The notes under the pieces: model-generated
The model's input: only the letters and a program-made list of their open reading frames with translations
The model's database searches: none
Told to the model about the DNA's origin: nothing
In this document: one piece after another, positions 9,259 to 48,255 of the stretch
Position numbering within the stretch: position 1 is the stretch's first letter
Layout: the number at the start of each line of letters is the position of its first letter
Program-made: the position numbers and the translations under genes
From: Magnetospiraceae bacterium
GTDB lineage: Bacteria; Pseudomonadota; Alphaproteobacteria; Rhodospirillales; JBMYUJ01
Direction: 5' to 3'
Assembly (NCBI GenBank): GCA_049605255.1
Contig: JBMYUJ010000002.1
Coordinates: forward strand, 9,791-73,790
DNA: 64,000 nt

Positions 9259-10209
<951 letters not shown>

Positions 10210-10213
10210 CTAA

Positions 10214-10228
10214 GCAAGGGCCGTGCCA
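10214..10228 (-). promoter_or_regulatory. sigma54 promoter of nifHDK
   Basis: The reverse complement reads TGGCACGGCCCTTGC, an exact TGGCAC-N5-TTGC, about 65 nt upstream of the nifH ATG. Confidence 0.9.
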
Positions 10229-10327: not shown

Positions 10328-10343
10328 TGTGGGAACCGTGACA
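10328..10343. promoter_or_regulatory. NifA UAS for nifH
   Basis: TGTGGGAACCGTGACA is an exact TGT-N10-ACA, about 100 bp upstream of the nifH -24 element. Its last A is the A of the draT ATG. Confidence 0.8.
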
Positions 10344-11158
10344 TGACGCCCAGTCTCCCGCGCTGGGCACGGCTGCCCATTAACCGCTGTAACCTGCCCT
10401 CTGTGATCCTGGGAGGCTTGGCCTTTCAGGAACAGCCCAGCGTCTTGGAAATTGATTGCGTCCGCCCGCTTCATGAGGAGCTGTTCGCTATGTTGCGGGC
10501 CCTGCAAACCCATGACGCGCGCGCTGAACGGTTTATGGATTACATGACCGTCCATTTCATGTTGCATGAGCTGGAAGAAGCCGGGCTGGGCCCCCGGGTG
10601 CCCGGATCGCGGGCCAATGCGGATTATTTGCGGATGATGCGCGGCTGGCTTTTTGATAGCGATGGGCGGGAAGGCGCTGTTTTGAAAGGCTGGGTGGAAA
10701 GCCGCTTCGGGCTCCTGCCCCGGTATCATGGCGGCGCGATGAAGGATGTGGGCGAAGCGCCCTATCAACGCTATATCACCCAGCGGTCGGCCGGTTTCTA
10801 TAATACCAATGCCCTCGAAGGGCAGCTCGACCTGCTCTATACCTATTGCCAGTATGAATTGGCGCAAGGGGGACCGGCGGCGCGGCGTATTACCCTGCAT
10901 CGCGGCACCAACGGTCTGGAAGAATACGATATCCTGACCCGTCATTCCCGGCGGGAGGCCGATGTCCTCTTAAATAACCTGAATTCCTTTACCCTGGATC
11001 GCGATAAGGCCGGGGAATTCGGCGATCTGATCCTCACCATCCAGGTACCCGCGCCGAAGATCTTTTTCTATAGCGACCTCTTGCCCGGCCGCCTGCATGG
11101 CGAACAGGAATATGTGGTCATCGGCGGCGTCTACCGCGCCGATATCCGTTACGACTGA
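10343..11158 (+). CDS. draT: NAD+:dinitrogenase-reductase ADP-ribosyltransferase
   Basis: The 271-aa MTPSLPRWARLPINRCNLPS..NADYLRMMRGWLFDSDGREGAVLKGWVESRFGL..LHRGTNG..NSFTLDRDKAGEFG..YVVIGG matches my recollection of DraT. It is divergent from nifH, as in other diazotrophs. Confidence 0.9.
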   Translation: MTPSLPRWARLPINRCNLPSVILGGLAFQEQPSVLEIDCVRPLHEELFAMLRALQTHDARAERFMDYMTVHFMLHELEEAGLGPRVPGSRANADYLRMMRGWLFDSDGREGAVLKGWVESRFGLLPRYHGGAMKDVGEAPYQRYITQRSAGFYNTNALEGQLDLLYTYCQYELAQGGPAARRITLHRGTNGLEEYDILTRHSRREADVLLNNLNSFTLDRDKAGEFGDLILTIQVPAPKIFFYSDLLPGRLHGEQEYVVIGGVYRADIRYD

Positions 11159-11236: not shown

Positions 11237-11251
11237 TGGTACGAAATTTGC
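11237..11251 (+). promoter_or_regulatory. Candidate sigma54 promoter for the SIR2-like/hemerythrin pair
   Basis: TGGTACGAAATTTGC has GG and GC at the canonical -24/-12 spacing (TGGYAC-N5-TTGC). It lies 46 nt upstream of ATG 11297. I saw no exact TGT-N10-ACA upstream. Confidence 0.6.
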
Positions 11252-11296: not shown

Positions 11297-12136
11297 ATGA
11301 CTGGGTTCGACGATCTATTGGCCGGTGTTTCCGCCGGTACCATTATCCCCTATCTTGGCCCCGGCGTGCTTGCCGATGTGACCGAGGTCGGCGGCGACGC
11401 CCCGATCCCCGCCAATAGCGATGATCTGATTCTGGCCATCAATGGCGGCAAGCCCATGGCGCCACGTCTGATGTATGAATTTCCCCGCGCTGCCATGGAT
11501 CTGGAACTGAAAAAGGGGCGGAACTTTCTATCGCGCACCCTGAACGAAATCTTTGGTGAACGGCAATGGACCCGGGCGCGGGTGCATGATTGGCTGGCGG
11601 CGGTCAAACCACCCTATGTAATCGACATCAACCGGGATACCCAACTAATCGATTCCTATTCGGAAACCCCCCATACCCTGGTGCGGGGCATCGCCCGTGT
11701 AGGCGGCACCGATTACCGGTTCCTAATCCATGCCTATGACGGCAGCAGCTACACGGAAATCGACCAGGAAGCGGTGGACCCCCGCTTGCCGATCCTGTTC
11801 AAACCCATGGGATCGCCAACGCCGACACCGAATTATATCGCCTCGGATGCGGATTATGTGGATTACATCACCGAGTTGATGGGCGGCTTCGCCATTCCCA
11901 CCTTCATGAAGGACTACCGGCTGGAAAAACAATATCTGTTCCTGGGCATGCGTTTTACCCGGGATACGGAGCGCATGGTCATGTCGGATATCATCTATGG
12001 TGCCAACGCGCCCGCGGGCTATGCCTTGATCCCCGACCCCACGCCGAAGGAGCTGCGCTATTGCGCGCATAAGGGGATTGAAGTGATCCGGGGCGATTAC
12101 GGCAATCTACTATCCACCGTGAGGGCGGCCTCATGA
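11297..12136 (+). CDS. SIR2-like (SIR2_2/ThsA-type fold) protein, divergent active site
   Basis: The motif order fits SIR2_2: IIPYLGPGV (GAGxS-like), PPYVIDINRDTQLI (TTNYD-like), ILFKPMGSP (KLHGS-like with His replaced by Met), SDADYVDY, YLFLGMRFTRD (FLGYSxxD-like). This is pattern recognition only, with no HMM run. Confidence 0.6.
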   Translation: MTGFDDLLAGVSAGTIIPYLGPGVLADVTEVGGDAPIPANSDDLILAINGGKPMAPRLMYEFPRAAMDLELKKGRNFLSRTLNEIFGERQWTRARVHDWLAAVKPPYVIDINRDTQLIDSYSETPHTLVRGIARVGGTDYRFLIHAYDGSSYTEIDQEAVDPRLPILFKPMGSPTPTPNYIASDADYVDYITELMGGFAIPTFMKDYRLEKQYLFLGMRFTRDTERMVMSDIIYGANAPAGYALIPDPTPKELRYCAHKGIEVIRGDYGNLLSTVRAAS

Positions 12137-12531
12137 GTAAATGGAACCCGTCGGAACACGCCCTGGGTCACGCCGATATGGATGCCACTCATGAAGAGTT
12201 TCTAGACCTGGTAACCCAGGCGCAGCAGGCCACCAACGAGGCGTTTCCCGCCGCGTTCAAAGCGCTGATGGCCCATACGCAGGCGCATTTCGCCAACGAG
12301 GAACGGCTGATGGAAGAGTCCGGTTTCCCCGCCTTTGGGGAACATCGGGAGGACCATCGCCGGGTCTTGGGCGACATGACCCAACTGGCCAGCCGCGTGG
12401 AGGCCGGACGGATCGCCTTCGCCCGGGCTTATTTGCGGGATCGGATTTTGGAATGGTTCACCCAGCATCTGGGCACCATGGATAGCGCCCTCGCCTTTCA
12501 TCTGAAACTCGCGGAAAAACGCTCGGCATAA
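12133..12531 (+). CDS. Bacteriohemerythrin-like protein
   Basis: MDATHEEF, HTQAHFANEE, FGEHREDHRRV and WFTQHLGTMDSAL form hemerythrin His/Glu/Asp iron-ligand motifs. The start shares an ATGA overlap with the SIR2-like stop. Confidence 0.85.
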   Translation: MSKWNPSEHALGHADMDATHEEFLDLVTQAQQATNEAFPAAFKALMAHTQAHFANEERLMEESGFPAFGEHREDHRRVLGDMTQLASRVEAGRIAFARAYLRDRILEWFTQHLGTMDSALAFHLKLAEKRSA

Positions 12532-12538
12532 TCGCGCG

Positions 12539-12590
12539 CTAAACTGTCACGCCGACCGGCAGATCTGCCTAAATTGTCACGCCCACCGGC
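12539..12590. repeat. Imperfect 22-bp direct repeat duplicating the 3' end of draG
   Basis: CTAAACTGTCACGCCGACCGGC (12539-12560) and CTAAATTGTCACGCCCACCGGC (12569-12590) match at 20/22. The second copy encodes the draG C-terminus PVGVTI-stop, and the first would read PVGVTV-stop. Confidence 0.8.
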
Positions 12591-13486
12591 GCGCGGGCCA
12601 GGAGAAGCCTGGCCTGTTCGATGCACTGAATTCCGATCTTTGGATCCAGGGCAGCCACCCAGTTCTTGGGAATGCCCTCCACGCCCCAGAGGGCGCCCGC
12701 CAGCATACCGGCGATGGCCCCCGTCGTGTCCGCATCGCCGCCCCGGTTCACCACGTCGATCAAGATCTCGGAAAAGCCGTCCTTATCACGGAGCGCCTGA
12801 AACACGGCGCGCAGGGTATCCACGATAAAGCCAGACGGGTTTTTTTCGCGCTTTCCGACAAAGGAAAATTCGGGAGACTTTGCGGCGAAACCCTCGGCCA
12901 TCTCGCGCAGATCGGCAAGGGACGCGTTCCCCGCCACGGCCGCTTGCACCATGTCGACAATACAATATGTCCCCGCATCGGAGAGGGCATTATTGTGGGT
13001 AATATGGGATTGCATCTCCACGGCCAGACGGACCTGTTCGGGCGCCGCGCCCAGGGTCGCCAATGCCACGGGCAAAACCCGCATGCAGGCCCCATTGCCG
13101 CCGTCATATTCGTTTTCGGGGACCCGGGTTTCATCGGTTTGCCGGTAGCGCACGATGCCGCGTCGGACCGTATTGCCCATATCCACCGGTTTGCTGCGCA
13201 TCCAGGCGCTGAAGGCCTCGGCAATGGCCCGCCCATCTACCGCCCCGTTGTCCAAAATGGACTGGCCGAGATAGAGGCTCATTTCGGTATCGTCGGTGAT
13301 CTGCCCAGGTTGCAACCGCAGCCAGCCACCGCCGATGATATTCCTGTGAACTCTGTATTGATCGGCGATTTCGCGCGGGGTCATGAATTCGACCGTGGCC
13401 CCCAGGGCATCGCCCACCGCCAACCCCAGATAGGCGCCAATGGCCCGATTTTCCAAGTCAGTCTTCGGGTCCGAAACAATAGTCAT
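12569..13486 (-). CDS. draG: ADP-ribosyl-[dinitrogen reductase] glycohydrolase
   Basis: RAIGAYLGLAVGDALGATVEFMTPREIADQY..GGGWLRLQPGQITDDTEMSL..GGDADTTGAIAGMLAGALWG closely matches R. rubrum DraG as I recall it. Start 13486 overlaps the nifQ 3' end by 29 nt. Confidence 0.93.
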   Translation of the reverse strand: MTIVSDPKTDLENRAIGAYLGLAVGDALGATVEFMTPREIADQYRVHRNIIGGGWLRLQPGQITDDTEMSLYLGQSILDNGAVDGRAIAEAFSAWMRSKPVDMGNTVRRGIVRYRQTDETRVPENEYDGGNGACMRVLPVALATLGAAPEQVRLAVEMQSHITHNNALSDAGTYCIVDMVQAAVAGNASLADLREMAEGFAAKSPEFSFVGKREKNPSGFIVDTLRAVFQALRDKDGFSEILIDVVNRGGDADTTGAIAGMLAGALWGVEGIPKNWVAALDPKIGIQCIEQARLLLARAPVGVTI

Positions 13487-14051
13487 AATCGACGCAGGTC
13501 TCGCAGGTGGGAGACCGGCAGATGAACACGCCATGCGCCTCGCACAACTGTTTGTAGAGGAACTTTTTCCATTTCATGTTCTTCCGGTTGCGCCGCCCCA
13601 ATCGGGGGAAATTATACTCGATCATACGGGTCAGGTCAGCCCGCGCCCACAGGCCCAGGTCTTGCCAGAGGTGATCAGACCCCATGCAGCCCGCACAAAT
13701 CAACTCCGCGATCCAAAATTCCGCCGGATCCCGCTTTGCCCGATGGGCCAACAGCAAAGACCGAAGATCATCAAGTTCTTCCATCCGTTCCAACGGACGC
13801 GGCAACGGGCCACCAGGAGCGGCGGAAAAACGGGCGCCGGGAAAAGCATGGCGCAGCATACGCCGGAACTGCCCCGCGGGCAGGCCCATATAGCCCCGTA
13901 ACATGCCCTCGCCCAGGGACCAAGACGCGATCATCTGGGCCATGAATCGGTCATTGGGCACGCCGCGCCCCCGGGCCAAAAGATCGGCGGCCACGGCCCG
14001 GCGGGCATCCGCTGGGCCGTGGTTCCGTAGGCTTTGTGTAACGACAGACAT
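13458..14051 (-). CDS. nifQ: NifQ (Mo processing for FeMo-co)
   Basis: The C-terminal KWKKFLYKQLCEAHGVFICRSPTCETCVDYDYC carries the Cx4Cx2Cx5C NifQ signature. Start 14051 lies 8 nt after the upstream stop. Confidence 0.88.
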   Translation of the reverse strand: MSVVTQSLRNHGPADARRAVAADLLARGRGVPNDRFMAQMIASWSLGEGMLRGYMGLPAGQFRRMLRHAFPGARFSAAPGGPLPRPLERMEELDDLRSLLLAHRAKRDPAEFWIAELICAGCMGSDHLWQDLGLWARADLTRMIEYNFPRLGRRNRKNMKWKKFLYKQLCEAHGVFICRSPTCETCVDYDYCFGPED

Positions 14052-14059
14052 TCGCGGCC

Positions 14060-14407
14060 TCAATATTCGACCAGAATATCCTCGTCGCGCACGATCATCT
14101 GGCAGGCCAGACGCCATTCGCAGGGAATGTCATCCACCAGCATCCGATCGAGCTCGTCCTTGGTCACTTTGCCCACTTCGCGCAAAACGACCCGTTCTTT
14201 TTCCGTCAGGTGACGGCCCATGAAGGGCTTTTCACCCAGCATGGAGATTTTGATGATGCAACTGCCACATTCGCCATCACCGCAATCGAATTGGATGGGA
14301 ATGCTGTTGGACTTGGCGATCTTCAGCACGGTTTCGGTATGGCTTCCGGCCACCGCGTAAACGGTTTTATCCTTGTAAGCCGGGTTGGAGAACGTAATTG
14401 TCGGCAT
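14060..14407 (-). CDS. Plant-type [2Fe-2S] ferredoxin
   Basis: FDCGDGECGSCIIK...RLACQ matches the C-x4/5-C-x2-C...C pattern of 2Fe-2S ferredoxins. Confidence 0.8.
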   Translation of the reverse strand: MPTITFSNPAYKDKTVYAVAGSHTETVLKIAKSNSIPIQFDCGDGECGSCIIKISMLGEKPFMGRHLTEKERVVLREVGKVTKDELDRMLVDDIPCEWRLACQMIVRDEDILVEY

Positions 14408-14443
14408 CGGTCCGATCCTCGATTTTCTAGGGTTAAATTGGGG

Positions 14444-14740
<297 letters not shown>

Positions 14741-14775
14741 TCACTCATTTTCAAAAATTAGTTCCCCTTCGCGTT

Positions 14776-16041
14776 TCAACCGAGGGATGCCAGGTCGATT
14801 TCCCGCGGCTTTAAAAGACCGCAAAGATGTTCGGCGACGGCACGGCCGAAACGCTCGCACTCTCCAAGCTCCGCTTGAGACGGTGCTAACTTCAGGCGCA
14901 TTCCGGAAACCGGAACCCGCATTTTTAGTCCCCGCAGTCTGGCCTCTATCATGTCCACGGCTTCGCCGGTCCAGCCGTAGGAGCCAAACGCCGCGCCGAG
15001 TTTTCCCTGTGTCTTGATCATGCCCAGCGAGGACAGCAGGTCCCAGACCGGCTTGGCCGCATCGCCATTGATAGTGGGGCTCCCGAAAATCAGGCCATCG
15101 GCTTCTTCCACCAGATCCACAAAGGGCTGGGGGTCGCCCCCCGCCAGATCATAGAGGGAGACGCGCACGCCGGGGATTTGCTCCGCCCCGCGCCGCACCG
15201 ATTGAGCCATGGTCGCCGTGCTGCCATAGGCACTGATATAGAAAATCAACAGGCTTTTTTCCGCTGCGCCCACTTCGCTTTTCAAGCTGGGGCGGGATAG
15301 CTCCCGATAGCGGCGGATATAGTCTCTCGGACGGTCCCGCAGGATCGGGCCATGGGCTGGCGCGACCAGGGCGGGCGACAGGGGTTCGATCAGATCCAGC
15401 GCCTGGTTCACATACTCTTTGAACGGGCGCATGATGTGGGAATAGTAATATTCAAAGGAGAACCGGAAATCCCCGGCCATATCGTTAAACAGGCGGTCGT
15501 CGCAAAAATGGCACCCGAACACATCGCCGGAGAACAGTATTTTATCTTCTTCCAGATAGGTGCATTGGGTATCCGGCCAATGCAGGTAGGGGGTGTTCAA
15601 GAACCGTAAGGTACGCCCGCCAATGGACACCGAATCCCCCGTCGCCACCGCGGTGAACGGGAACTCTTGCAGGTCGGGCTTCAACAAGGCCTTCAGCATG
15701 TTTGGCGCCCGGCGGGAGATGAACACCTGCGCTTGCGGCGCCCGGCGCATCAACTCCGGCAGCGCGCCGGTATGGTCTGGCTCCAAATGGTTGAGGACAA
15801 TTACCTTGATCTCGTCATATCGGGCGACGGATTCCAGGCGCTTGAAAAACGTGTCGGCGAATTCTTGCTTCACCGTATCGACGATGGCGACTCCGTCTTC
15901 CCCGCGAATCAGATACGCGTTATAGGAGGTGCCATTGGCGGTCCGAAGGATGATGTCAAAGTTACGCAAGTCTGGGTCGAACGCGCCGGCCCAGTACACC
16001 TCATTGCCAATGGAAACCGCGCCATCGCCGACAGAAATCAT
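14776..16041 (-). CDS. Flavodiiron protein (FprA-type O2/NO reductase: metallo-beta-lactamase plus flavodoxin domains)
   Basis: NHLEPDHTG (HxExDH di-iron motif) is followed by a C-terminal flavodoxin-like LLIFYISAYGSTATMA..GSPTINGD. The start shares an ATGA overlap with the upstream gene. Confidence 0.85.
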   Translation of the reverse strand: MISVGDGAVSIGNEVYWAGAFDPDLRNFDIILRTANGTSYNAYLIRGEDGVAIVDTVKQEFADTFFKRLESVARYDEIKVIVLNHLEPDHTGALPELMRRAPQAQVFISRRAPNMLKALLKPDLQEFPFTAVATGDSVSIGGRTLRFLNTPYLHWPDTQCTYLEEDKILFSGDVFGCHFCDDRLFNDMAGDFRFSFEYYYSHIMRPFKEYVNQALDLIEPLSPALVAPAHGPILRDRPRDYIRRYRELSRPSLKSEVGAAEKSLLIFYISAYGSTATMAQSVRRGAEQIPGVRVSLYDLAGGDPQPFVDLVEEADGLIFGSPTINGDAAKPVWDLLSSLGMIKTQGKLGAAFGSYGWTGEAVDMIEARLRGLKMRVPVSGMRLKLAPSQAELGECERFGRAVAEHLCGLLKPREIDLASLG

Positions 16042-16463
16042 GACACGGGCTCCCGCATGTTTTCCGCGTGAGTGCGCGGGCAGGTTTCCAAATCCTCTTT
16101 GGGCGGCGCCATATCGATGCCCAGGGCCAATAGCGCCGGACCGGGCACAAAGCCGCTGATCTTGCCTAGGTCCGTTTCCATCAAGGGGCGACGGATCAGC
16201 AGTGGATCTTCCACCATCAGCGCCAGGGCCGTGGCTGCATCCAAACTAGCGGGATCTACCTCGCCGGATTTCACCCGAGGGGCGGATGCGTTGAACCATT
16301 CCTTCACCGGACGATCACCGAAAAACGGCTGCAGGGATTGCACGGTCCACGGCCAACGCAAAAGATCCCTGACCTCCACCTCGTAACCGAGGTCGCGGAG
16401 CAGGGCCTTTTGCTTGGTGTTGTTGATGCAACCCGGTTTCTCGTAGAAATCGATCCTGGTCAC
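16038..16463 (-). CDS. nifO: ArsC/Spx-fold nitrogenase-associated protein (NifO-like)
   Basis: MTRIDFYEKPGCINNTKQKALLRDLGYEVEVRDLL is an ArsC-family N-terminus. Its position between fdxN and nifQ matches the A. vinelandii nifB-fdxN-nifO-nifQ order. Confidence 0.7.
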   Translation of the reverse strand: MTRIDFYEKPGCINNTKQKALLRDLGYEVEVRDLLRWPWTVQSLQPFFGDRPVKEWFNASAPRVKSGEVDPASLDAATALALMVEDPLLIRRPLMETDLGKISGFVPGPALLALGIDMAPPKEDLETCPRTHAENMREPVS

Positions 16464-16473
16464 GACCTCGTTC

Positions 16474-16752
16474 CTAGCGGGCTTGGATCTCCGCCATGGC
16501 GGCGGCCATCCGTTCTGGTGGAATGCCGGTCAATGAGCCCGGCGGATTAATCGGCGCCCCGACCGCATCCAGGATCGCCCCTTCGATGGGGCAAATGGAA
16601 GCGCATTGCGGTTCGCCATGATCGCCATCGCATTCGGTGCAGGCGCGGGGATCGATCATGAAATGCGGCGCCGCCTGGTAGATGGCTTCGCTGGGGCACA
16701 AGGGCATACAGGCCCAGCAATTGGTGCAGCTTTCGACAATCTTCAGGGCCAT
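16474..16752 (-). CDS. fdxN: nif-specific 2x[4Fe-4S] ferredoxin III
   Basis: MALKIVESCTNCWACMPLCP and CTECDGDHGEPQCASICP are the two Cys clusters. The gene lies immediately downstream of nifB. Confidence 0.88.
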   Translation of the reverse strand: MALKIVESCTNCWACMPLCPSEAIYQAAPHFMIDPRACTECDGDHGEPQCASICPIEGAILDAVGAPINPPGSLTGIPPERMAAAMAEIQAR

Positions 16753-16767: not shown

Positions 16768-18258
16768 TTAAGCGCTCAGCGCGGCCGCGGTCGGCGCTTC
16801 CGCCAACTGACCCGCCTCGTACATTTCGTGGTAGACGGCCCATACGGCCTCTTCGATTTCCTCCAAGGCATGTTCACCGTTGGGTTGAATGCCCGCGCCC
16901 TCCAGCCGGTCCCAGGGTTCCATGCCGATCTTGGCGCAGAGCACCGCTTCGCAGCCTTCCAACGCCCGGACGATGCGATCGATCTTGTCCTCACCTTCGT
17001 CGTCGCAGGTATCGGAACCAACGCAATATTGCTCCGCCTTGCGATGGCCGATGAACTCCACACCTTCGGGGGTGGCCTTGTAGACCATGAATTCGCTGGC
17101 ATGGCCGAAATGCTGGTTGATGACGCCCTGGCCCTTGGAGGCAATCGCCATTAGGACGGGCCGCGCCGACATATCGGGAAAAGCCTTGAGGGGTTCGGCC
17201 TCGGCCGCCTTGATATCCCGATTGGATTCGATAGCGGCGTGGAATTCCGCCCGCTTTTCCATGGCCGCGTCGTAATCGATTTGCATCTCGTCGACCTTGT
17301 CCATGGTAAACTCCTGGCCGCGGTCTTCGCCCAGCATGCCGACCGCATCGGCACGGCACTGGCGGCAATGCTTCATCAGGTTGGCCCCCCCGGCGCAATC
17401 TTCCTGCAAGGTTTGCAGTTCGGTTGGGGTGGGGCCACGCTGGCCCATGACGCCGTAGAAGGTACCGTGCTCCGCCTCGGCAATCAGCGGCATGATGTTG
17501 TGTAAGAAAGCACCCTTGGATTGAACCACCCGGTTCACCTCCTTCAGATGCTCGTCGTTCACACCCGGGATCATCACCGAGTTGACCTTCACCAGGATGC
17601 CCCGCTCGGTAAGCATCTCCAGGCCCTTTTGCTGACGCTCGATCAAAATCTCTGCCGCCTTCCGACCCCGAATCCGCCGGTTTTTCCAGAAAATCCAGGG
17701 GTAGATCTTGGCGCCGACGTCCGGGTCGACGCAGTTGATGGTGATGGTCACGTGATCCACATTATGTTTGGCCAGTTCATCCACACAGTCGGGCAGCGCC
17801 AGGCCATTGGTGGACACGCAGAGTTTGATGTCCGGCGCTTTCTCCGTGAGTTCGCGGAAAGTTTGGAAGGTCCGCTCCGGGTTCGCCAGAGGATCGCCAG
17901 GACCGGCGATGCCGAGCACGGTCATCTGCGGCACATTGGCCGCCACCGCCATCACCTTGCGCACCGCCTGATCCGGTTGCAGCAGTTCCGAAACCACGCC
18001 GGGGCGGGATTCGTTCGCGCAATCATATTTGCGGTTACAGTAATGGCATTGGATGTTACAGGCGGGCGCAACGGCCACATGCATCCGTGCATAATAGTGG
18101 TGCGCCTGTTCGGAATAGCAGGGGTGGTTATGGACCTTTTCCCGGATCGCCTCCGGCAGGTGAGAAAGCTGGTCATTGGTGCTGCCGCAGGAACTTGAGG
18201 CGCAGCCGCTTTCCGCTGCTTCCGGCGCACTATCTTGTCCGAGAACTTTTAAATCCAT
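16768..18258 (-). CDS. nifB: NifB, radical-SAM FeMo-cofactor (NifB-co) synthase
   Basis: HVAVAPACNIQCHYCNRKYDCANESRPGV contains the CxxxCxxC radical SAM motif. The C-terminal NifX-like domain shows INQHFGHASEFMVY. Confidence 0.97.
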   Translation of the reverse strand: MDLKVLGQDSAPEAAESGCASSSCGSTNDQLSHLPEAIREKVHNHPCYSEQAHHYYARMHVAVAPACNIQCHYCNRKYDCANESRPGVVSELLQPDQAVRKVMAVAANVPQMTVLGIAGPGDPLANPERTFQTFRELTEKAPDIKLCVSTNGLALPDCVDELAKHNVDHVTITINCVDPDVGAKIYPWIFWKNRRIRGRKAAEILIERQQKGLEMLTERGILVKVNSVMIPGVNDEHLKEVNRVVQSKGAFLHNIMPLIAEAEHGTFYGVMGQRGPTPTELQTLQEDCAGGANLMKHCRQCRADAVGMLGEDRGQEFTMDKVDEMQIDYDAAMEKRAEFHAAIESNRDIKAAEAEPLKAFPDMSARPVLMAIASKGQGVINQHFGHASEFMVYKATPEGVEFIGHRKAEQYCVGSDTCDDEGEDKIDRIVRALEGCEAVLCAKIGMEPWDRLEGAGIQPNGEHALEEIEEAVWAVYHEMYEAGQLAEAPTAAALSA

Positions 18259-18297: not shown

Positions 18298-18312
18298 GCA
18301 AGCGCCGTGCCA
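18298..18312 (-). promoter_or_regulatory. sigma54 promoter of the nifB operon
   Basis: The reverse complement reads TGGCACGGCGCTTGC, an exact consensus, about 40 nt upstream of the nifB ATG. Confidence 0.9.
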
Positions 18313-18407
18313 ACGCTTATTGCAGAAGCTTACGCCTTGTAATTCTTCACTTTATGGAATGAATGTCGGGTTCGGTCCCCCACAAGTCGACAGGGAGTCA
18401 GCGTTCC

Positions 18408-18423
18408 TGTCGCGTTTGCGACA
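18408..18423. promoter_or_regulatory. NifA UAS for nifB
   Basis: TGTCGCGTTTGCGACA is an exact TGT-N10-ACA, about 95 bp upstream of the -24 element. Confidence 0.8.
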
Positions 18424-18442: not shown

Positions 18443-18707
18443 ATACCAACCTGCGTGGATAATGACTCATTGAGACGGGCTTTCCCGGGTTTTTGGCGAG
18501 GAGAGGCCGATGTGGCGATCTGGGAGATCGGAAATCGACCTCGACGCCGTCCAAAGGCCCAGGAAAGCCGCCGAACCGGTTGGCCACGCGCCCCGGCGGG
18601 AGCGTCGGCCGTCCTTGCCGATGGCCCTGCATCGCCTGCGTTCCTCCTCCTGCCCGACGGGACGCGCCGGACAATCTCTATAGGTCATTATCAACGCAGG
18701 TTGGTAT
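18443..18707. repeat. 265-bp element bounded by 24-nt inverted repeats (MITE-like or long-stem RNA structure) between nifA stop and nifB UAS
   Basis: ATACCAACCTGCGTGGATAATGAC (18443-18466) is the reverse complement of GTCATTATCAACGCAGGTTGGTAT (18684-18707) at 23/24 positions. Similarity continues with mismatches into the flanks. The right arm touches the nifA stop codon. Confidence 0.7.
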
Positions 18708-20275
18708 TAGATCTGCCGCATGTGGATGTTGAGGGTCTTGATCCGATAGTGGATCTGCCGCGGGGTCATGCCCAACAGGCGGGCCGCCTTGGCCTGCACC
18801 CAGCCCGCTTCTTCCAGGGCCGCGATCACCCGCTCCCGGTCATCCAGAGTGGGATCATCCAGGTCCACGGCGGGGCGCGGTGCGGCGGCTTCCGGCACTG
18901 CGGCGGTATCTTCTCGCAGGCCGGTCAGGCCAATCACATCCCGGTCGATGGTATCGCCTTCGCAAAGGATGGCGGCCCGTTCCAGATAGTTTTCCAGCTC
19001 CCGCACATTGCCCGGCCAGGTATGGCGCAGCAATATCCGAATGGCGCTGTCGGTGATCTGCAGGTCCCGGCCCTGCTTACGGGCGATTTTTTCAATCAGA
19101 AAGCGGGCGAGATCAGGAATATCCTCCACCCGATCCCGCAAGGGTGGCAGGTTGATGGGCATCACATTGAGGCGGTAATACAGGTCCTCCCGGAACTTGC
19201 CCTCCTCCACCCCAGCTTCCAGGTTCCGGTTGGTGGCGGCGATTACCCGCACATCCACCTTCAGGGTCACCATACCGCCGACCCGTTCGAACTCGCCTTC
19301 TTGCAAGACCCGCAACAGCTTGGCCTGGAAAGTGGGGGAAATTTCGCCGATCTCGTCCAGGAACAGCGTGCCTTCATCGGCCTGTTCGAAACGGCCCTTG
19401 CGCTGACCGGTAGCACCGGTGAAGGCCCCTTTTTCATGACCAAACAGTTCGGATTCCAGCAAATTATCCGGCAGCGCCGCGCAATTGAGTTTGACGAACG
19501 GGTTGGCATGGCGCGGCGAATTATAATGGATACTGTTGGCAATCAGCTCCTTGCCGGTGCCGGATTCGCCCCGGATCAACACGGTGGTATCCCATTTCGA
19601 CACCAAGCGCACCTGATCGAACACGGTCCGCATCACCTTGGTATGGCCGACCACCTTGTCAAACCCATGCTGCCCTTTGACGGTCCGGCGCAGGGTGTCG
19701 CGCTCATCCCGCAGTTCCTTCTGGCTGTAGGCCACCTGGCGGCACAGGCGAATGGTTTGCGCCACCAGATTAGCAATCATTTCCAGCAGCTTGGCCCGCT
19801 CGCCCAGCAGCAACCCATCTTGCGGCGGTTGCCCGGCGATCACACCGATCAGCTCATCGGGGCCGGAAAACAGCGGTACCGCCAAAAACGGCAGGTCCTG
19901 ATCATAAATGCCGCGCCGGTCCAGGAATTTGGGCTCCTCGGAAATACGAGGCACCACCACGGTTTCCCGGTGATCCATGATCAAGCCGATAATACCTTCG
20001 CCCCGGCGGTAGCTGACCCCATCGTCATCGGCCCAAAGTTCGCGGCCCGGGGTCGCCCGCACCAGCAGGTCGCCGGAATTTTCGTCCACCAGGCTGATCA
20101 TGCCATGGCGGAGTTCGCCGGACTCGTGCAGCATGGCCAAGACCTCGCCGATGGTCTTGCGCAGGTCAAACGACCGGCTCAGCACCTGGCTGGCCCGATA
20201 GAGGAGGTCCAATTCCCGTTCAACAAAGGCGGACCGTCTTTCCTCTCGCAACAAAGTATTCATCCCATCCCACAT
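18707..20275 (-). CDS. nifA: NifA, sigma54-dependent transcriptional activator
   Basis: GAF-like N-terminus, then AAA+ motifs VLIRGESGTGKELIA and ESELFGHEKGAFTGA, then C-terminal HTH AKAARLLGMTPRQIHYRIK. The start could instead be the MNTLL Met 12 nt downstream. Confidence 0.96.
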   Translation of the reverse strand: MWDGMNTLLREERRSAFVERELDLLYRASQVLSRSFDLRKTIGEVLAMLHESGELRHGMISLVDENSGDLLVRATPGRELWADDDGVSYRRGEGIIGLIMDHRETVVVPRISEEPKFLDRRGIYDQDLPFLAVPLFSGPDELIGVIAGQPPQDGLLLGERAKLLEMIANLVAQTIRLCRQVAYSQKELRDERDTLRRTVKGQHGFDKVVGHTKVMRTVFDQVRLVSKWDTTVLIRGESGTGKELIANSIHYNSPRHANPFVKLNCAALPDNLLESELFGHEKGAFTGATGQRKGRFEQADEGTLFLDEIGEISPTFQAKLLRVLQEGEFERVGGMVTLKVDVRVIAATNRNLEAGVEEGKFREDLYYRLNVMPINLPPLRDRVEDIPDLARFLIEKIARKQGRDLQITDSAIRILLRHTWPGNVRELENYLERAAILCEGDTIDRDVIGLTGLREDTAAVPEAAAPRPAVDLDDPTLDDRERVIAALEEAGWVQAKAARLLGMTPRQIHYRIKTLNIHMRQI

Positions 20276-20308: not shown

Positions 20309-21895
20309 TCAGGAAACCCGGTCGTCGGCAACCCGGGTCGAAAGGACAATGCGCACCACACAGCCCAACACGCCGGAATCCTCGATGGTGATTCCGCCGC
20401 CTTGGTCGGTGGCGAGTTGCTGGGCCAGGGTCAATCCCATGCCGCCATGGCCTTGACCGTTGCGCCAACCACAAAAGAACGGTTCAAACACCTTACGGCG
20501 CACTTCCGGGGGAATGCCGGGCCCGGTATCACGAACCTCTACCTCTACCGCGCTATCCGACTGCGACCGTGTCAGAACCTGAATTTCCCGCGTCGAGCCG
20601 CCCCCTTCGCTGACAGCCATCACCGCATTATCCAAAACATTCTTGATCAAAGACCGCAGCGCCGTCACATTCCCCGGAACCGACGCCAAAACCGTTGTCG
20701 GCTGCCAATCCACCGTGGTGCCGGTCGCCAAGAACTGTTCCGTCGATACAGAAAGCACGTCTCGTATAACTTCATTCACGTTCACCGGTTCCGTTGCGGC
20801 GGGGGCTGCCGCTGGCATGGCCGCTTCCAAACGTTCCAGGGTTTCCCGGCTGGACCGAACCACATCATTCAGCGCTTCCAACAAGGGGGTATGCTGGTCG
20901 CCTTGGCGTTCCAGCATGGTGACCGCCGCATTCACAAGGTTGAGCGGCCCTTGCAACTGATAAATGGAAGCGCCGATGATTTCCCGGATGCTGGCCACTC
21001 TCTGCTGTTCCGCCATCAAGGCCCGCACCATGCTGGTGCGAGACTCCTCGAACCGGCGACGTTGCGGCGTGATGTCGTTGCAGACCAAGAGCATGCGGTT
21101 CAACGCACTGCCGCGAAAGAAATGGTCGGCATCCAACTCCTCTTCATGGACCCAGGTACCAGAACAGGCAAACCACCGCTCCTCGCGGGCCTTCAAGCTG
21201 ACGTCGATATTGTGGAAATCCCGGCGGATTGCGGCAATTTCCGCGAAGGAAAGCCCCAATGCCTCCTCCACTGCCGCCAAGACTTCTACGGCCGGTTCCA
21301 AATCCAGGTCAGTCATCAGCACCTTGTAGGCATGGTTATCCAATTCCACCCGGCCCTCTTCATCCACCATGGCAATCGCCACGGGGGCGACGTCGATCAC
21401 TGATTCCAGCAGCGCTTTCTTGTTCTTCAGTTCGGTTTCCAGCTGGTGCAGCTGGGTCACATCCCGGTGCAGGCCCATGTAATGGGTAACCTCCCCATCG
21501 GGCCCCCGCACGGGGATCACCGTCAGCTCCGCCACATAGCGCTCGCCGCTTTTCTTGCGGTTGATCAGGGTGCCGGTCCAGGCCCGCCCCGCGGTGATGG
21601 TGCCCCACATCTCTTCATAGACCTTGGCCGGCGTCGCCTTGAAGGAGAGGACGGATTCGTTCTTTCCCACCAATTCTTCCGGCAGGTACCCGGTGACCTG
21701 TTGAAAGGCCTCGTTGGCATAAAGAATTCGGGCTTTGCGGTCGGTGATGGAGATCGCCACCGAACTCTGCGCGACGGCCTCGATAAAAACCTGCACAGGG
21801 AGGCCCGCCACATTGTTGGCATGTAGATCCCGCAGGATGGTGATAATCTCCTCGGGTGTTCCCGTCGGTGGATTGGCGATAAAATCCTGGAACAT
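20309..21895 (-). CDS. nifL: NifL, redox/N-status anti-activator of NifA
   Basis: PAS region VAISITDRKARILYANEAFQQVTGYLPEELVGKNESVLS..YLGLHRDVT and C-terminal VFEPFF..GMGL parallel A. vinelandii NifL. Start 21895 (MFQDF) has a GGAGGA RBS, and an upstream in-frame ATG at 21937 is also possible. Confidence 0.9.
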   Translation of the reverse strand: MFQDFIANPPTGTPEEIITILRDLHANNVAGLPVQVFIEAVAQSSVAISITDRKARILYANEAFQQVTGYLPEELVGKNESVLSFKATPAKVYEEMWGTITAGRAWTGTLINRKKSGERYVAELTVIPVRGPDGEVTHYMGLHRDVTQLHQLETELKNKKALLESVIDVAPVAIAMVDEEGRVELDNHAYKVLMTDLDLEPAVEVLAAVEEALGLSFAEIAAIRRDFHNIDVSLKAREERWFACSGTWVHEEELDADHFFRGSALNRMLLVCNDITPQRRRFEESRTSMVRALMAEQQRVASIREIIGASIYQLQGPLNLVNAAVTMLERQGDQHTPLLEALNDVVRSSRETLERLEAAMPAAAPAATEPVNVNEVIRDVLSVSTEQFLATGTTVDWQPTTVLASVPGNVTALRSLIKNVLDNAVMAVSEGGGSTREIQVLTRSQSDSAVEVEVRDTGPGIPPEVRRKVFEPFFCGWRNGQGHGGMGLTLAQQLATDQGGGITIEDSGVLGCVVRIVLSTRVADDRVS

Positions 21896-21965
21896 GGTCC
21901 TCCACTTCGCTAATTGCGGCCCTGTGCGGCGTTGCAATGTGCGTGCTGCACTTGCGAAATGTTAA

Positions 21966-21980
21966 GCAAGAAACGTGCCT
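21966..21980 (-). promoter_or_regulatory. Candidate sigma54 promoter of nifLA
   Basis: The reverse complement reads AGGCACGTTTCTTGC. GG-N10-GC spacing is correct, with one mismatch to TGGCAC-N5-TTGC. Confidence 0.6.
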
Positions 21981-22023
21981 TTAAAACCTATGAGCCGCTA
22001 TCGAAGGGGGCTCGTCTGTTTTT

Positions 22024-22039
22024 TGTCAGAAACGCGACA
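22024..22039. promoter_or_regulatory. TGT-N10-ACA UAS in the nifL/rnfA divergent region
   Basis: TGTCAGAAACGCGACA is an exact NifA-type motif. Confidence 0.65.
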
Positions 22040-22063
22040 TGGCGAAACCTGACTGATCGTGGA

Positions 22064-22079
22064 TGTCCGATACTGCACA
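22064..22079. promoter_or_regulatory. Second TGT-N10-ACA UAS in the nifL/rnfA divergent region
   Basis: TGTCCGATACTGCACA is an exact NifA-type motif, 40 bp from the first, which is roughly four helical turns. Confidence 0.6.
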
Positions 22080-35890: not shown

Positions 35891-35905
35891 GCAAACACCG
35901 TGCCA
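35891..35905 (-). promoter_or_regulatory. sigma54 promoter of the nifV operon
   Basis: The reverse complement reads TGGCACGGTGTTTGC, an exact TGGCAC-N5-TTGC. Confidence 0.88.
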
Positions 35906-41645: not shown

Positions 41646-42659
41646 ATGTTACGTAAGTTGTTTGCCGGTGCCGCCATCGCGGCCATGGCTCTGACCGGAG
41701 CCGCCAATGCGGAACCGACCTTCAAGCCTTTGGACGGTGATCCGACCGAATTGAATTTCGGGATCATCTCCACCGAATCCAGCTCCAACCTGAAAGAACA
41801 GTGGCTGCCCCTGATCGCCGATATGGAAAAGGCCCTGGGCATGAAGGTCAATGCGTTCTTCGCGCCCGATTATGCCGGGATCATCGAAGGCATGCGTTTC
41901 GGCAAGGTGCACGTGGCCTGGTTCGGCAATAAGTCCGGCATGGAAGCCGTGGACCGCGCGGGCGGCGAAGTCTTCGCGCAAACCTCCAAAGGCGATGGCA
42001 CCCAAGGGTACTATTCCCACATCATCACCCATGTGGATAACAAGGACATCAACAGCCTTGAAGACATCTTCAAATGCGACAAGTCCTTGAACTTCGGCAT
42101 CGGCGACCCGAACTCCACCTCCGGCTTCCTGGTGCCGTCCTACTATGTGTTCGCGAAAAACGGTGTGGAGCCGAAAAACTGCTTCAAGACCGTGCGTAAC
42201 GCCAACCACGAAACCAACCTGATGGCCGTGGCCAACAAGCAGGTTCACGTGGCCGCCAACAACTCCGAACAAATTGGCCGTTCCAAGCTGAAAGCGCCTG
42301 AAAAAGCCGCGCAAATCAAAGTGATTTGGACCTCTCCGCTGATCCCGTCCGACCCCATGGTCTACCGCAAGGACATGAGCAAGGAACTGAAGACCAAGAT
42401 CAAGGGCTTCTTCCTGGGCTATGGCCGCTTCGGCGATGTGGAACATGCCAAAGAGGTGCTGAACGGCATCTCCGACGGCAACGGCCTGTTCATGGAAAGC
42501 AACAACACCCAACTGTATCCGATCCGCCAACTTGCCCTGTTCAAGGACAAGGTCAAAACCGAAGGGTCGGAAGGCATGTCCAGCGATGACAAAGCCGAGA
42601 AGATTTCCGCCATTGAGAAGAAATTGGCTGACCTGGATATCCTGGTCGCCAACCAATAA
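41646..42659 (+). CDS. phnD: Phosphonate ABC transporter periplasmic binding protein
   Basis: Signal peptide MLRKLFAGAAIAAMALTGAANA. PhnD-like motifs LNFGIISTESS and FGIGDPNSTSGFLVP. Confidence 0.9.
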   Translation: MLRKLFAGAAIAAMALTGAANAEPTFKPLDGDPTELNFGIISTESSSNLKEQWLPLIADMEKALGMKVNAFFAPDYAGIIEGMRFGKVHVAWFGNKSGMEAVDRAGGEVFAQTSKGDGTQGYYSHIITHVDNKDINSLEDIFKCDKSLNFGIGDPNSTSGFLVPSYYVFAKNGVEPKNCFKTVRNANHETNLMAVANKQVHVAANNSEQIGRSKLKAPEKAAQIKVIWTSPLIPSDPMVYRKDMSKELKTKIKGFFLGYGRFGDVEHAKEVLNGISDGNGLFMESNNTQLYPIRQLALFKDKVKTEGSEGMSSDDKAEKISAIEKKLADLDILVANQ

Positions 42660-42676
42660 ACCATAGCACCTCTTAC

Positions 42677-42703
42677 GGCGCCCGGATAAGTAAACCGGGC
42701 GCC
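42677..42703 (+). terminator. Hairpin after phnD (partial terminator or attenuator)
   Basis: GGCGCCCGG-ATAAGTAAA-CCGGGCGCC is a perfect 9-bp stem followed by GTTT. The U-tract is weak. Confidence 0.45.
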
Positions 42704-42734
42704 GTTTCCACGCAGGAATGCGGAGATCGCCACC

Positions 42735-43541
42735 ATGTCTGACACCGCCCCCATGTCTTCCAGCGTCAACCTCCCGCCACGTGACTTGAAACGCTCGACG
42801 ACCTCTTTAGTGATCTGGGGCGTGTTGGCGGGCTTGCTGATGCTTTCCTGGGAAGGGGCCGACATGCGGCCCTGGTCATTGGTGGAAAACGCCCAAAACA
42901 TGGTGGATTTCAGTGTCGGGTTTTTCCCGCCCAATTTCACCGAATGGAAAATGTATCTGCGCGAGATGTGGATCACGATCCAGATCGCCATCTGGGGCAC
43001 CGCCCTGGCGGTGGTCTGCGCCATTCCTTTCGGTATCCTGTCCTCTGAAAATATCGTGCCTTTTTGGGTTTATCAGCCGGTGCGCCGCCTAATGGACGCG
43101 GCCCGGGCGATCAACGAAATGGTCTTTGCCATGCTGTTCGTGGTTGCCGTGGGCTTGGGCCCGTTTGCCGGGGTTCTGGCCCTGTGGGTGCATACCACGG
43201 GTATCCTGGCCAAGCTGTTTTCTGAAGCCGTCGAGGCCATCGATCCGCGCCCGGTGGAGGGCATCCGGGCCATTGGTGCCAGCAAACTGCAAGAGGTGGT
43301 TTACGGTGTGATCCCGCAAGTTCTGCCCTTGTGGATTTCCTACTCGCTGTATCGTTTTGAATCCAATGTGCGGTCTGCCACGGTGCTCGGCATCGTCGGA
43401 GCTGGCGGTGTGGGCATGATCCTGTGGGAGAACGTGCGGGGGTTTTATTATGCGGAAACCGCGGCGGTGATGATCATCATCATCCTGTCGGTCAGCCTGC
43501 TGGATATCCTTTCCCAGCGGCTGCGCAAGTTGGTGACCTGA
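42735..43541 (+). CDS. phnE: Phosphonate ABC transporter permease
   Basis: Polytopic membrane protein with the [17 protein letters not shown] motif (EAA loop of PhnE). Confidence 0.9.
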
Positions 43542-43559
43542 GAAGGCACAGTCTGAATC

Positions 43560-44303
43560 CTAAAAATCAAACACAAGCTGCGTGCGATCCCCTGCCCAGA
43601 CCGTGACCCCGAAGCTCAAGGGCTGGTCCACGGGATCGATATCCACCGCCTCGGTCACCAGAACGGGGCGGGTGACCGGCTGCTTCAAAAGCTCCGCTTC
43701 CTCCCGGCTTGGCAAACGGCCCATGACCCGGGTGGTCTTGCGGAAATAATCCTCCACCCCGCAATGGCGAAGCGCCTGGGTGATCGACCGGGTTTCGACG
43801 GCGAATTCGGCAAGATCGGGGAATCTCTTTTTCTCGAAATAGGTCTCGGAGAGGCCCAACGGTCGCCCATCCAACTCGGAAACCGCCCGGATTTGCAGCA
43901 CCACAGCCTGGACAGAAATGCCAAGCGGTGCGGCGATACGGCGCCCGGCCCGCAGGGTCGCGGTGGCCAAAATCACCCGCCCTTGCGATCGCCCCGTGCG
44001 CATCACGGTTTCCGTAAACCGGGTGCGCCGCCGGATGGGATAGTCCAACACATTTTCCTGCACGAAGGTGCCGCGCCCCTGATCGGCACGCAGCAGCCCT
44101 TTTTCGGTCAGATCGGCAATGGCCCGGCGCACCGTATGACGGTTCACCCCGAACTGCTGGGCAAAGGCATTTTCCGTCGGCAACCGCGCGCCTGCGCCGA
44201 TACGGCCCGATAGCACATCGTCTCGGATCTGGGCGCTGATCTGCCGCCACAAGGGGGCGCCCTTGGCGCGCGCCAATCCAGCCAGACTATTTTTTTCCGT
44301 CAT
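43560..44303 (-). CDS. phnF: GntR/HutC-family phosphonate-utilisation regulator
   Basis: Winged helix LPTENAFAQQFGVNRHTVRRAIADL plus a UTRA-like C-terminus. The gene is divergent from phnG. Confidence 0.88.
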   Translation of the reverse strand: MTEKNSLAGLARAKGAPLWRQISAQIRDDVLSGRIGAGARLPTENAFAQQFGVNRHTVRRAIADLTEKGLLRADQGRGTFVQENVLDYPIRRRTRFTETVMRTGRSQGRVILATATLRAGRRIAAPLGISVQAVVLQIRAVSELDGRPLGLSETYFEKKRFPDLAEFAVETRSITQALRHCGVEDYFRKTTRVMGRLPSREEAELLKQPVTRPVLVTEAVDIDPVDQPLSFGVTVWAGDRTQLVFDF

Positions 44304-44348
44304 AAATTTATCACGACTAGGGGGTTTAAACCGTAACGTGAATAGAAT

Positions 44349-44378
44349 AATGTCTAGACAAATAATTGTCTAGATAAA
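44349..44378. promoter_or_regulatory. Two candidate PhnF operators in the phnF-phnG divergent region
   Basis: AATGTCTAGACAAAT contains the perfect palindrome TGTCTAGACA, and AATTGTCTAGATAAAT follows 16 bp on. The core resembles the GTCTAGAC of HutC-family (DasR/NagR-type) operators. Confidence 0.55.
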
Positions 44379-44392
44379 TTTTTGGGTTGTCT

Positions 44393-44860
44393 ATGTTGCA
44401 AGATCAAAAGACCGCAGAAAAACAACCATCACCAGACCATCAGCAACGCCAGCGTTGGATGGCACAACTTGCTCGTCTGCCCGGGGCACAACTGGAATCC
44501 CTGTGGGACGGCGTCGACAATAAACCGGCTTATACGATGCTGCGTGCCCCGGAAACCGGCTTGGTGATGGTGCGTGGGCGTGCGGGCGGCACCGGCACCA
44601 AATTCAATCTGGGCGAAATGACCGTCACCCGTTGTGTGGTGCGGCTGGCCAATGGCTACCAAGGTGTCTCCTATGTATCTGGCCGGGATAAACGCCAGGC
44701 GGAACTGGCGGCGGTTTTCGATGGTCTTTTGCAGGCGGGAGATCTGGATGCGGAAACTCTGACCCCCGCCACCGAAGAGGCCGCCCAGCGCGATGCCGCG
44801 CGGGCGGGCAAGGTCGCCGCGACAAAAGTTGATTTCTTCACCATGGTCCGGGGGGAATGA
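44393..44860 (+). CDS. phnG: C-P lyase core complex subunit PhnG
   Basis: RQRWMAQLA..APETGLVMVRGR..VTRCVVRL..GRDKRQAELAAV..KVDFFTMVRGE parallels E. coli PhnG. The ORF track starts 6 nt earlier at a TTG. Confidence 0.92.
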   Translation: MLQDQKTAEKQPSPDHQQRQRWMAQLARLPGAQLESLWDGVDNKPAYTMLRAPETGLVMVRGRAGGTGTKFNLGEMTVTRCVVRLANGYQGVSYVSGRDKRQAELAAVFDGLLQAGDLDAETLTPATEEAAQRDAARAGKVAATKVDFFTMVRGE

Positions 44861-45447
44861 ACATGGACCTCGCCCCCGCCCCCATCCTGCCGGGCTTCCC
44901 CGATTCCGTGACGGCATCGCAACGGGTTTTCCGGGCGGTGCTGACCGCGCTGTCTCAACCTGGCCTGATTGTGCCGTTGGTTGACCTACTGGAATGCCCC
45001 GCGCCGCTACGCCCGACCACCAATGCGGTCCTGCTGGCATTGGCGGATTTCGAGACACCCGTGTGGCTCGATCCCGAATTCACCGGCGCCCACGATCATT
45101 TGACCTTCCATTGCGGTTGCCCGGTAACCGACAATCCTGGGGAGGCCGCGTTCGCGGTGGCGAGCGCCCCCCCGGACCTCGCGCAATTCGCCTGGGGCTC
45201 GCCGGAGTATCCGGAACGTTCCACCACGGTGATAATTCAAGTTCCCGATCTGAAACCGGCGTCGGGGGTGCGCCTTACCGGACCGGGGATCGCCCAATAC
45301 AAGGAACTTGCTGTGGACGGCCTGGACGCCTCCTTTTGGGATCAATTGGATGGCAATATCGCCGCATTCCCTTGCGGTATCGATGTGATTTTCGCGGCGG
45401 CAGACAAGATCGCCGCCTTGCCCCGCACCACTCGGGTGGAGAGATAA
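44857..45447 (+). CDS. phnH: C-P lyase subunit PhnH
   Basis: SQRVFRAVLTALSQPG and FPCGIDVIF match PhnH. The start shares an ATGA overlap with phnG. Confidence 0.9.
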   Translation: MNMDLAPAPILPGFPDSVTASQRVFRAVLTALSQPGLIVPLVDLLECPAPLRPTTNAVLLALADFETPVWLDPEFTGAHDHLTFHCGCPVTDNPGEAAFAVASAPPDLAQFAWGSPEYPERSTTVIIQVPDLKPASGVRLTGPGIAQYKELAVDGLDASFWDQLDGNIAAFPCGIDVIFAAADKIAALPRTTRVER

Positions 45448-45448
45448 C

Positions 45449-48245: not shown

Positions 48246-48255
48246 GGCCCTTGCG

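Follow-up and report, generated by a model that had tools for sequence, protein, structure and literature searches.

Genes at the nifB-draG locus

The window analysed here is a stretch of 64,000 nucleotides from the contig JBMYUJ010000002.1 of a Magnetospiraceae bacterium (assembly GCA_049605255.1). On its minus strand, eight tightly packed genes occupy about 5.7 kb in the order nifB, fdxN, a nifO-like gene, a flavodiiron gene, two 2Fe-2S ferredoxin genes, nifQ and draG. The features of this gene cluster are the following.

16768-18258, minus strand: nifB, 496 aa (TIGR01290, 662 bits)
16474-16752, minus strand: gene of an fdxN-like 2x[4Fe-4S] ferredoxin, 92 aa (NF033683, E = 3e-20, which is under the cut-off of that model)
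16038-16463, minus strand: gene of a nifO-like nitrogenase-associated protein, 141 aa (TIGR01616, 162.5 bits, cut-off 109)
14776-16041, minus strand: flavodiiron (type A flavoprotein) gene, 421 aa, at the position of Azoarcus fprA (matched in part by models of flavorubredoxin, flavodoxin and the metallo-beta-lactamase fold)
14444-14728, minus strand: first 2Fe-2S ferredoxin gene, 94 aa, at the position of Azoarcus fdxC (PF00111, E = 3e-12)
14060-14407, minus strand: second 2Fe-2S ferredoxin gene, 115 aa, at the position of Azoarcus fdxD (PF00111; gene order as in PMC8467165)
13458-14051, minus strand: nifQ, 197 aa from the ATG at 14051, with the longest ORF extending to 14117 (PF04891, 181.9 bits)
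13458-13486, minus strand: out-of-frame overlap of 29 nt between the 3' end of nifQ and the 5' end of draG (read from the sequence)
12569-13486, minus strand: draG, ADP-ribosyl-[dinitrogen reductase] glycohydrolase, 305 aa (TIGR02662, PF03747)

From nifB to draG, the junctions are 15 nt (nifB/fdxN), 10 nt (fdxN/nifO-like gene), -4 nt (nifO-like gene/flavodiiron gene, overlapping in ATGA), 47 nt (flavodiiron gene/first ferredoxin gene), 36 nt (first/second ferredoxin gene), 8 nt (second ferredoxin gene/nifQ) and -29 nt (nifQ/draG). The 8-nt gap is counted from the ATG at 14051, which is the probable start of nifQ and has a GAGG 6 nt upstream; the longest nifQ ORF would overlap the second ferredoxin gene by 58 nt. 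The nifQ stop codon TGA is located at 13460-13458, and the overlap with draG comprises 9 codons of nifQ and this stop codon. A 103-aa ORF at 14433-14744 was rejected as the first 2Fe-2S ferredoxin gene. It is in the wrong frame, and according to PF00111 the real gene is 14444-14728.

The genes of the dinitrogenase reductase switch that face this cluster are located as follows.

9259-10149, minus strand: nifH, whose product is the substrate of DraT and DraG, with Arg101 in GRGVIT (TIGR01287)
10214-10228, minus strand: nifH sigma54 promoter, an exact -24/-12 site
10343-11158, plus strand: draT, divergent from nifH and convergent with draG (PF07357, 323 bits)
11237-11251: sigma54-like site TGGTACGAAATTTGC with one mismatch, in the gap between draT and the SIR2_2-like gene, preceding the SIR2_2-like and hemerythrin genes
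11297-12136, plus strand: SIR2_2-like gene, at the position of Azoarcus azo0536 (PF13289)
12133-12531, plus strand: hemerythrin gene, at the position of Azoarcus dcrH1 (PF01814)

The draG and draT genes are 1.4 kb apart. The stop codon of draG is separated from that of the convergent hemerythrin gene by only 37 bp, and draG is therefore the terminal gene of the cluster. An earlier sequence-only reading of this DNA had placed draG at the tail of the nifB operon, on the strand opposite to draT, with its start inside the last 9 codons of nifQ and with upstream junctions that overlap or do not exceed 47 nt. The coordinates, the TIGR02662 and PF07357 matches, the positions of the ATG at 13486 and the TGA, and the seven junctions given above agree with this description.

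Identity of draG

The draG product was matched to the equivalog model TIGR02662 (dinitro_DRAG) with 400.6 bits against a cut-off of 337.05, covering the model positions 1-286 of 287. The model PF03747 (ADP_ribosyl_GH) also matches. Alignments with the DraG proteins of Rhodospirillum rubrum (2WOC, E = 2e-83) and Azospirillum brasilense (3G9D, E = 7e-82) are full-length. According to the alignment to 2WOC and 2WOE, the stretches TVEF, QITDDTEMS, PVD(M)GNT and GGDADTTGA are retained, and the residue D mutated in 2WOE is present. The retained stretches TVEF, TDDTEM, PVD and GGDADTTG are taken here to be the motifs of the dinuclear-metal site seen in solved structures of DraG. In the whole genome, only one DraG scores above the TIGR02662 cut-off. 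A second, distant ADP_ribosyl_GH member is encoded on contig 21 (39.8 bits). The draG gene of the window is a true DraG gene, and its product is probably functional. As the metal-site motifs of DraG are retained and NifH has Arg101, the DraT/DraG switch as a whole looks functional.

Related loci and the start codon of draG

For comparison, the window proteins were mapped onto those 80 DraG loci of reference genomes that are closest to the DraG of the window. In 77 of the 80 loci, genes of the nifB operon precede draG on its strand. The gene directly upstream of draG is nifQ, on the same strand, in 67 loci, the 2Fe-2S ferredoxin gene in four (Zoogloea-like) and nifB in one (Ectothiorhodospira haloalkaliphila); in five Thiohalomonadaceae loci, nifQ precedes draG on its strand at a distance of about 1 kb. 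The 77 loci cover the Chromatiaceae, Ectothiorhodospiraceae, Thiohalomonadaceae, Thiobacillaceae, Rhodocyclaceae, Zoogloeaceae, Gallionellaceae, Hydrogenophilaceae and Oceanospirillaceae, and a few alphaproteobacterial genomes (labelled Terasakiella and 'Methylocystaceae') are also among them.

The minus-strand ORF 12569-13534 holds an in-frame ATG at 13486, from which the N-terminus reads MTIVSDPK.... The other in-frame starts are a TTG at 13456, located 1 nt past the nifQ stop codon, and an ATG at 13534. The start at 13486 is favoured because 33 of the 80 related loci likewise have an ATG inside nifQ, with an overlap of exactly 26 or 29 nt. Translation of draG might instead begin at the TTG 13456 or, with lower probability, at the ATG 13534; nifQ and draG would then abut, and the membership of draG in the operon would be the same. 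The alignments with TIGR02662 and with the PDB entries begin exactly at the TTG codon (residue 11 of DraG), and in several betaproteobacterial draG relatives a GTG start is located 0-4 nt past the nifQ stop. No good Shine-Dalgarno sequence was found before the ATG 13486, and a GAGG is located 3 nt before the ATG 13534. On the other hand, the 33 loci with the conserved overlapping ATG belong to Chromatiaceae and alphaproteobacterial genomes, and at many of them, including many Chromatiaceae, the open frame offers no other start codon than this ATG. The TTG is not conserved at its position, and the ATG 13534 has no positional counterpart in the relatives. A start other than 13486 is thus considered unlikely. 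The overlapping ATG is retained in each of two nifQ codon contexts (TAT-Gxx and CAT-Gxx), and the conserved overlap suggests translational coupling of draG to nifQ.

Promoter and terminator motifs around the probable operon

The control elements upstream of nifB, and the single candidate inside the operon, are as follows.

20309-21937, minus strand: nifL (TIGR02938, 514.8 bits)
18707-20275, minus strand: nifA (TIGR01817, 661 bits)
18408-18423, strand not assigned: NifA upstream activator sequence (UAS) TGTCGCAAACGCGACA, an exact TGT-N10-ACA
18298-18312, minus strand: sigma54 -24/-12 promoter of nifB, TGGCACGGCGCTTGC, TGGCAC-N5-TTGC with 0 mismatches
13639-13611, minus strand: sigma70-like match inside nifQ, CTGACC and TATAAT spaced by 17 nt, 10 of 12 positions (motif scan)

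The nifL and nifA genes lie directly upstream of the nifB operon, and rpoN is encoded in the genome (TIGR02395, 420.6 bits). The -24/-12 site of nifB is located 40 nt upstream of the nifB ATG. About 100 bp separate the UAS from the -24 element downstream of it, and the range looked for was about 80-150 bp upstream of the promoter. Thus, the consensus promoter and UAS that had been reported from the sequence at 18298-18423 are exact matches upstream of nifB. The 64 kb contain four exact -24/-12 sites, each of them on the minus strand. Two, at 10214 and 18298, immediately precede nifH and nifB, respectively, and a third, at 35891, is close to a pair of TGT-N10-ACA sites that precede a homocitrate-synthase-like gene. 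A sigma54 site was not recognised for draT.

Between nifB and draG, no minus-strand sigma54 site with one mismatch or fewer was found. Matches with two mismatches at 15195 and 17395 were rejected, since they have neither a good GG/GC core nor any conservation. In the related loci, a site was counted when the -24/-12 element had at most one mismatch and an intact GG/GC, and the region searched for nifB extended 400 nt upstream of the gene. Such a site precedes nifB in 55 of the 60 loci, and only three of the 60 have one anywhere between nifB and draG (the scan covered 245 kb altogether). In the 600 nt that precede draG, it was detected in 2 of 92 cases.

No intergenic terminator was found in the operon; the terminator-like matches are at chance expectation and are all inside coding sequence. 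At the 3' side of draG, a 9-bp imperfect hairpin followed by UUUUU (about 12505-12557) was tried as an intrinsic terminator and was rejected. Its fold is no better than that of shuffled sequences (z = 0.27 and 0.76).

The sequence-only reading had seen no internal promoter in the operon. This holds for sigma54 sites with up to one mismatch, whereas one sigma70-like match at chance level is present in nifQ. This match is located 125 nt upstream of the draG ATG and is the best of the region and the sole candidate internal promoter of draG. If it were a constitutive sigma70 promoter, a NifA-independent basal level of DraG would be added to the read-through from nifB. The expression of the corresponding genes in Azoarcus olearius BH72 would fit such a nitrogen-independent baseline. 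By RNA-seq under N2 fixation, the fold changes from nifB to draG1 are 196, 308, 292, 79, 92, 106, 65 and 24 (PMC8467165 supplement), and the 24-fold value of draG1 is lower than the 65-fold of nifQ and than those of the genes upstream. The lower induction of draG1 could be caused by operon polarity or by some NifA-independent transcription. In the window, however, the number of sigma70-like matches in the region agrees with that expected from shuffling (4 observed, 4.4 expected). The TATAAT stems from a Tyr-Asn codon pair that only this nifQ has and that the aligned relatives lack, and the conserved overlap of nifQ and draG argues for coupled expression. An active promoter inside nifQ is thus quite improbable.

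Host and phylogeny of DraG

The RpoB of the host is 75-78% identical to those of Thalassospiraceae, Ferrovibrionaceae and Acetobacteraceae-type genomes, and 57-60% identical to those of beta- and gammaproteobacterial genomes. Therefore, the host is an alphaproteobacterium. Among the genomes compared, it is the sole representative of its family.

DraG was detected in 5 of 401 genomes of a class-level sample, a number too small for a survey of layouts, and in 125 of 401 genomes of an order-level sample. The position of DraT was checked in 80 of these 125 genomes, including every genome with a DraG that scores like that of the window. The classic co-oriented draT-draG pair is present in 58 of the 80 genomes of the host's order. 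The split layout is present in 19 genomes belonging to seven families, and in three genomes the two genes are otherwise separated or on different contigs. In 18 of the 19 split-type genomes, nifQ is directly upstream of draG, with gaps of 14-313 nt between the model matches.

A maximum-likelihood tree was constructed from 92 DraG proteins. The draT-linked proteins, which are those of the classic operon, and the nifB-operon-linked proteins form separate clades, each with an SH-aLRT value of 100. The two DraG clades match the two gene layouts. The DraG of the window is in the nifB-operon-linked (nifQ-linked) clade, where it adjoins that of another genome of its order, and the alphaproteobacterial DraG proteins branch near the base of this clade. 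The ADP_ribosyl_GH superfamily is broad, and the genome carries the distant member on contig 21, yet it is very improbable that the window gene is a general ADP-ribosylhydrolase paralogue outside the nitrogenase switch, as its score exceeds the curated cut-off of an equivalog model, the match to the R. rubrum DraG is full-length with the metal-site motifs retained, DraT and the NifH Arg101 target are encoded 1.4-3 kb away, and the gene falls within the DraG tree.

The sequence-only reading had regarded the placement of draG in the nifB operon, apart from draT, as an unusual wiring, and had proposed that the draG context be compared in relatives. In this comparison the split, nifQ-linked layout is dominant among the closest DraG loci. 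The view that the wiring is unusual is contradicted by the 77 of 80 closest loci, by the seven families of the host's order, and by the publications on Dechloromonas and Azoarcus BH72 described below. Among NifL-NifA-type diazotrophs, the split layout is common and has already been described; in the order of the host it is not rare.

Proposed expression of draG

It is probable that draG is the last gene of one NifA/sigma54-driven transcript from nifB to draG, and that draT is controlled separately. This interpretation is favoured because of the tight spacing of the genes, the absence of internal sigma54 sites between nifB and draG, and the Azoarcus data. The analysis shows the identities of the genes, their spacing and overlap, the promoter motifs and the conserved layout; we infer that in this organism nifB to draG are transcribed together under NifA and that draG translation is coupled to nifQ.

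In the proposed mechanism, NifA would activate the single sigma54 promoter upstream of nifB, and the transcript would run through to draG. Translation of draG would start at the ATG inside nifQ, and would probably be coupled to the ribosomes that translate nifQ or terminate on it. DraG would then appear together with nitrogenase, which is the only time when its substrate, the ADP-ribosylated NifH, can exist. The draT gene would be transcribed separately from the divergent region between nifH and draT. Finally, PII and AmtB would set the activities of both DraT and DraG after translation, as these proteins control both enzymes post-translationally in R. rubrum and A. brasilense (PMC6490700).

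As for the regulation that had been proposed from the sequence, the part in which draG is expressed with the nif genes and draT is separate stands, on the grounds of the anatomy of the locus, the conservation of this anatomy and the expression in BH72; the part in which such wiring is unusual does not. Such a layout explains how the on/off organisation of nitrogenase is arranged in many diazotrophs, in that the enzyme for reactivation is produced only together with nitrogenase and the enzyme for inactivation is under separate control.

Two further readings can be put forward. The conserved out-of-frame overlap of 26 or 29 nt may be a selected coupling device, which fixes DraG at a low level relative to the FeMo-cofactor assembly proteins. 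Moreover, NifL-NifA and the split dra genes may have moved as one module between the Alphaproteobacteria and the Beta- and Gammaproteobacteria, in a direction that is not fixed by the DraG tree. Taken together, these two readings are speculative, and we hold them to be possible rather than probable.

Comparison with known systems

The closest studied system is that of A. olearius BH72, in which the genes are arranged as nifL, nifA, nifB (azo0523), ferredoxin, azo0525, fprA, fdxC, fdxD, nifQ and draG1 (azo0530) (PMC8467165). The order of all eight operon genes, with draG last after nifQ, is the same in the window. NifL-NifA control is also common to both, as are a draT gene divergent from nifH and, following draT, an uncharacterised gene and a hemerythrin gene. 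An RpoN motif is predicted upstream of nifB in BH72 (PMC3916325). The split layout of BH72 was studied experimentally by Oetjen and Reinhold-Hurek in 2009, as summarised in PMC8467165. According to this summary, a draG1 reporter fusion was induced 19-fold, and draT was not nitrogen-responsive by Northern blot. As draG1 is induced and draT is not nitrogen-responsive, the regulation that had been proposed for the window is already demonstrated for this gene order. In BH72, azo0536 and the hemerythrin gene dcrH1 come after draT; both are induced about 60-fold, and a secondary promoter is suspected by the authors (PMC8467165).

Three differences from BH72 were observed. BH72 is a betaproteobacterium, whereas the host of the window is an alphaproteobacterium. 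Several genes (azo0531-0534) are located between draG1 and dcrH1 in BH72, whereas in the window the stop codons of the corresponding genes are 37 bp apart. BH72 carries a second draG gene, unlike the genome of the window.

The same layout is found in Dechloromonas aromatica RCB, in the order NifB, 4Fe-4S ferredoxin, nitrogenase-associated protein, flavoprotein, ferredoxin, 2Fe-2S ferredoxin, NifQ and DraG (PMC2907700). The lengths of these proteins are 500, 92, 159, 423, 95, 120, 190 and 326 aa (PMC2907700), and those in the window, in the same order, are 496, 92, 141, 421, 94, 115, 197 and 305 aa. DraT of D. aromatica is encoded separately, adjoining NifH (PMC2907700). There, draG and draT are about 30 genes apart, whereas the distance in the window is 1.4 kb. 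A literature phrase search pairing draG with 'nifB operon' gave no match.

The window thus adds one alphaproteobacterial example with NifL-NifA control, together with the correspondence between clade and layout for DraG. It is of use for annotation and for the engineering of switch-off in diazotrophs, and is not a discovery.

In R. rubrum and A. brasilense, the enzymes, the Arg101 target of NifH and the divergent orientation of draT and nifH are the same as in the window. In these two organisms, draG directly follows draT in one operon, whereas the two genes are split in the window. The classic draT-draG operon is not known to be nif-regulated. The split layout departs only from this textbook operon of Rhodospirillum and Azospirillum. 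In conclusion, the window contains the Azoarcus/Dechloromonas-type split DraT/DraG layout in an alphaproteobacterium with NifL-NifA control.

Reading frames and predicted promoter sites in the window

The longest open reading frame in one gap of the nifB operon (103 aa, GTG start, 14433-14744, minus strand) was rejected as an Arg-rich wrong frame. The true gene in that gap is the overlapping 94-aa 2Fe-2S ferredoxin gene (14444-14728, minus strand; PF00111). The wrong-frame product nonetheless matched relatives at 33-53% in tblastn.

The following sites are located upstream of nifL.

21966-21980, minus strand: sigma54 site AGGCACGTTTCTTGC, one mismatch
22024-22039 and 22064-22079: two exact TGT-N10-ACA sites

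The sigma54 site and the two TGT-N10-ACA sites within 21966-22079 suggest that nifLA may be autoregulated by NifA. Downstream of the nif region, another cluster is present, and its members include a phosphonate-binding protein, PhnI and an amidohydrolase.

41646-50096: phosphonate uptake and C-P lyase cluster

draG in other genomes

In Thiohalomonadaceae (loci L019, L024, L030, L047 and L049), the interval between draG and nifQ contains about 1 kb of additional sequence, which may hold a gene. In genome G449 of the host's order (contig 30, 13554-15286), draG follows nifQ and is immediately convergent with draT. The gap between the draG and draT model matches is just about 100 nt, with no SIR2-like or hemerythrin gene present. 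An exception inside the draT-draG operon clade is the classic-type DraG (470 bits) of genome G579 (contig 35), encoded 20 kb away from draT and on the other strand.

In one family of the host's order, four genomes (G033, G500, G693 and G564) carry a divergent second DraG paralogue in addition to the classic draT-draG operon.

G033, contig 6, 84583-85437: second DraG paralogue (L094)

As an exact TGGCAC-N5-TTGC is located 95 nt upstream of the DraG match start, the G033 paralogue looks like a stand-alone draG under predicted sigma54 control.

Comparison with Azoarcus

Between draT and the SIR2_2-like gene there is a further sigma54 site, upstream of the SIR2_2-like and hemerythrin genes (11297-12531).

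11237-11251, plus strand: sigma54 site TGGTACGAAATTTGC, one mismatch

These two genes occupy the positions of azo0536 and dcrH1 in Azoarcus olearius BH72, both of which show an induction of about 60-fold there without draT being induced; a "secondary promoter" for azo0536/dcrH1 was only suspected by the authors (PMC8467165). The predicted site, located downstream of draT and ahead of the counterparts of azo0536 and dcrH1, would explain why these genes are induced in Azoarcus without induction of draT.
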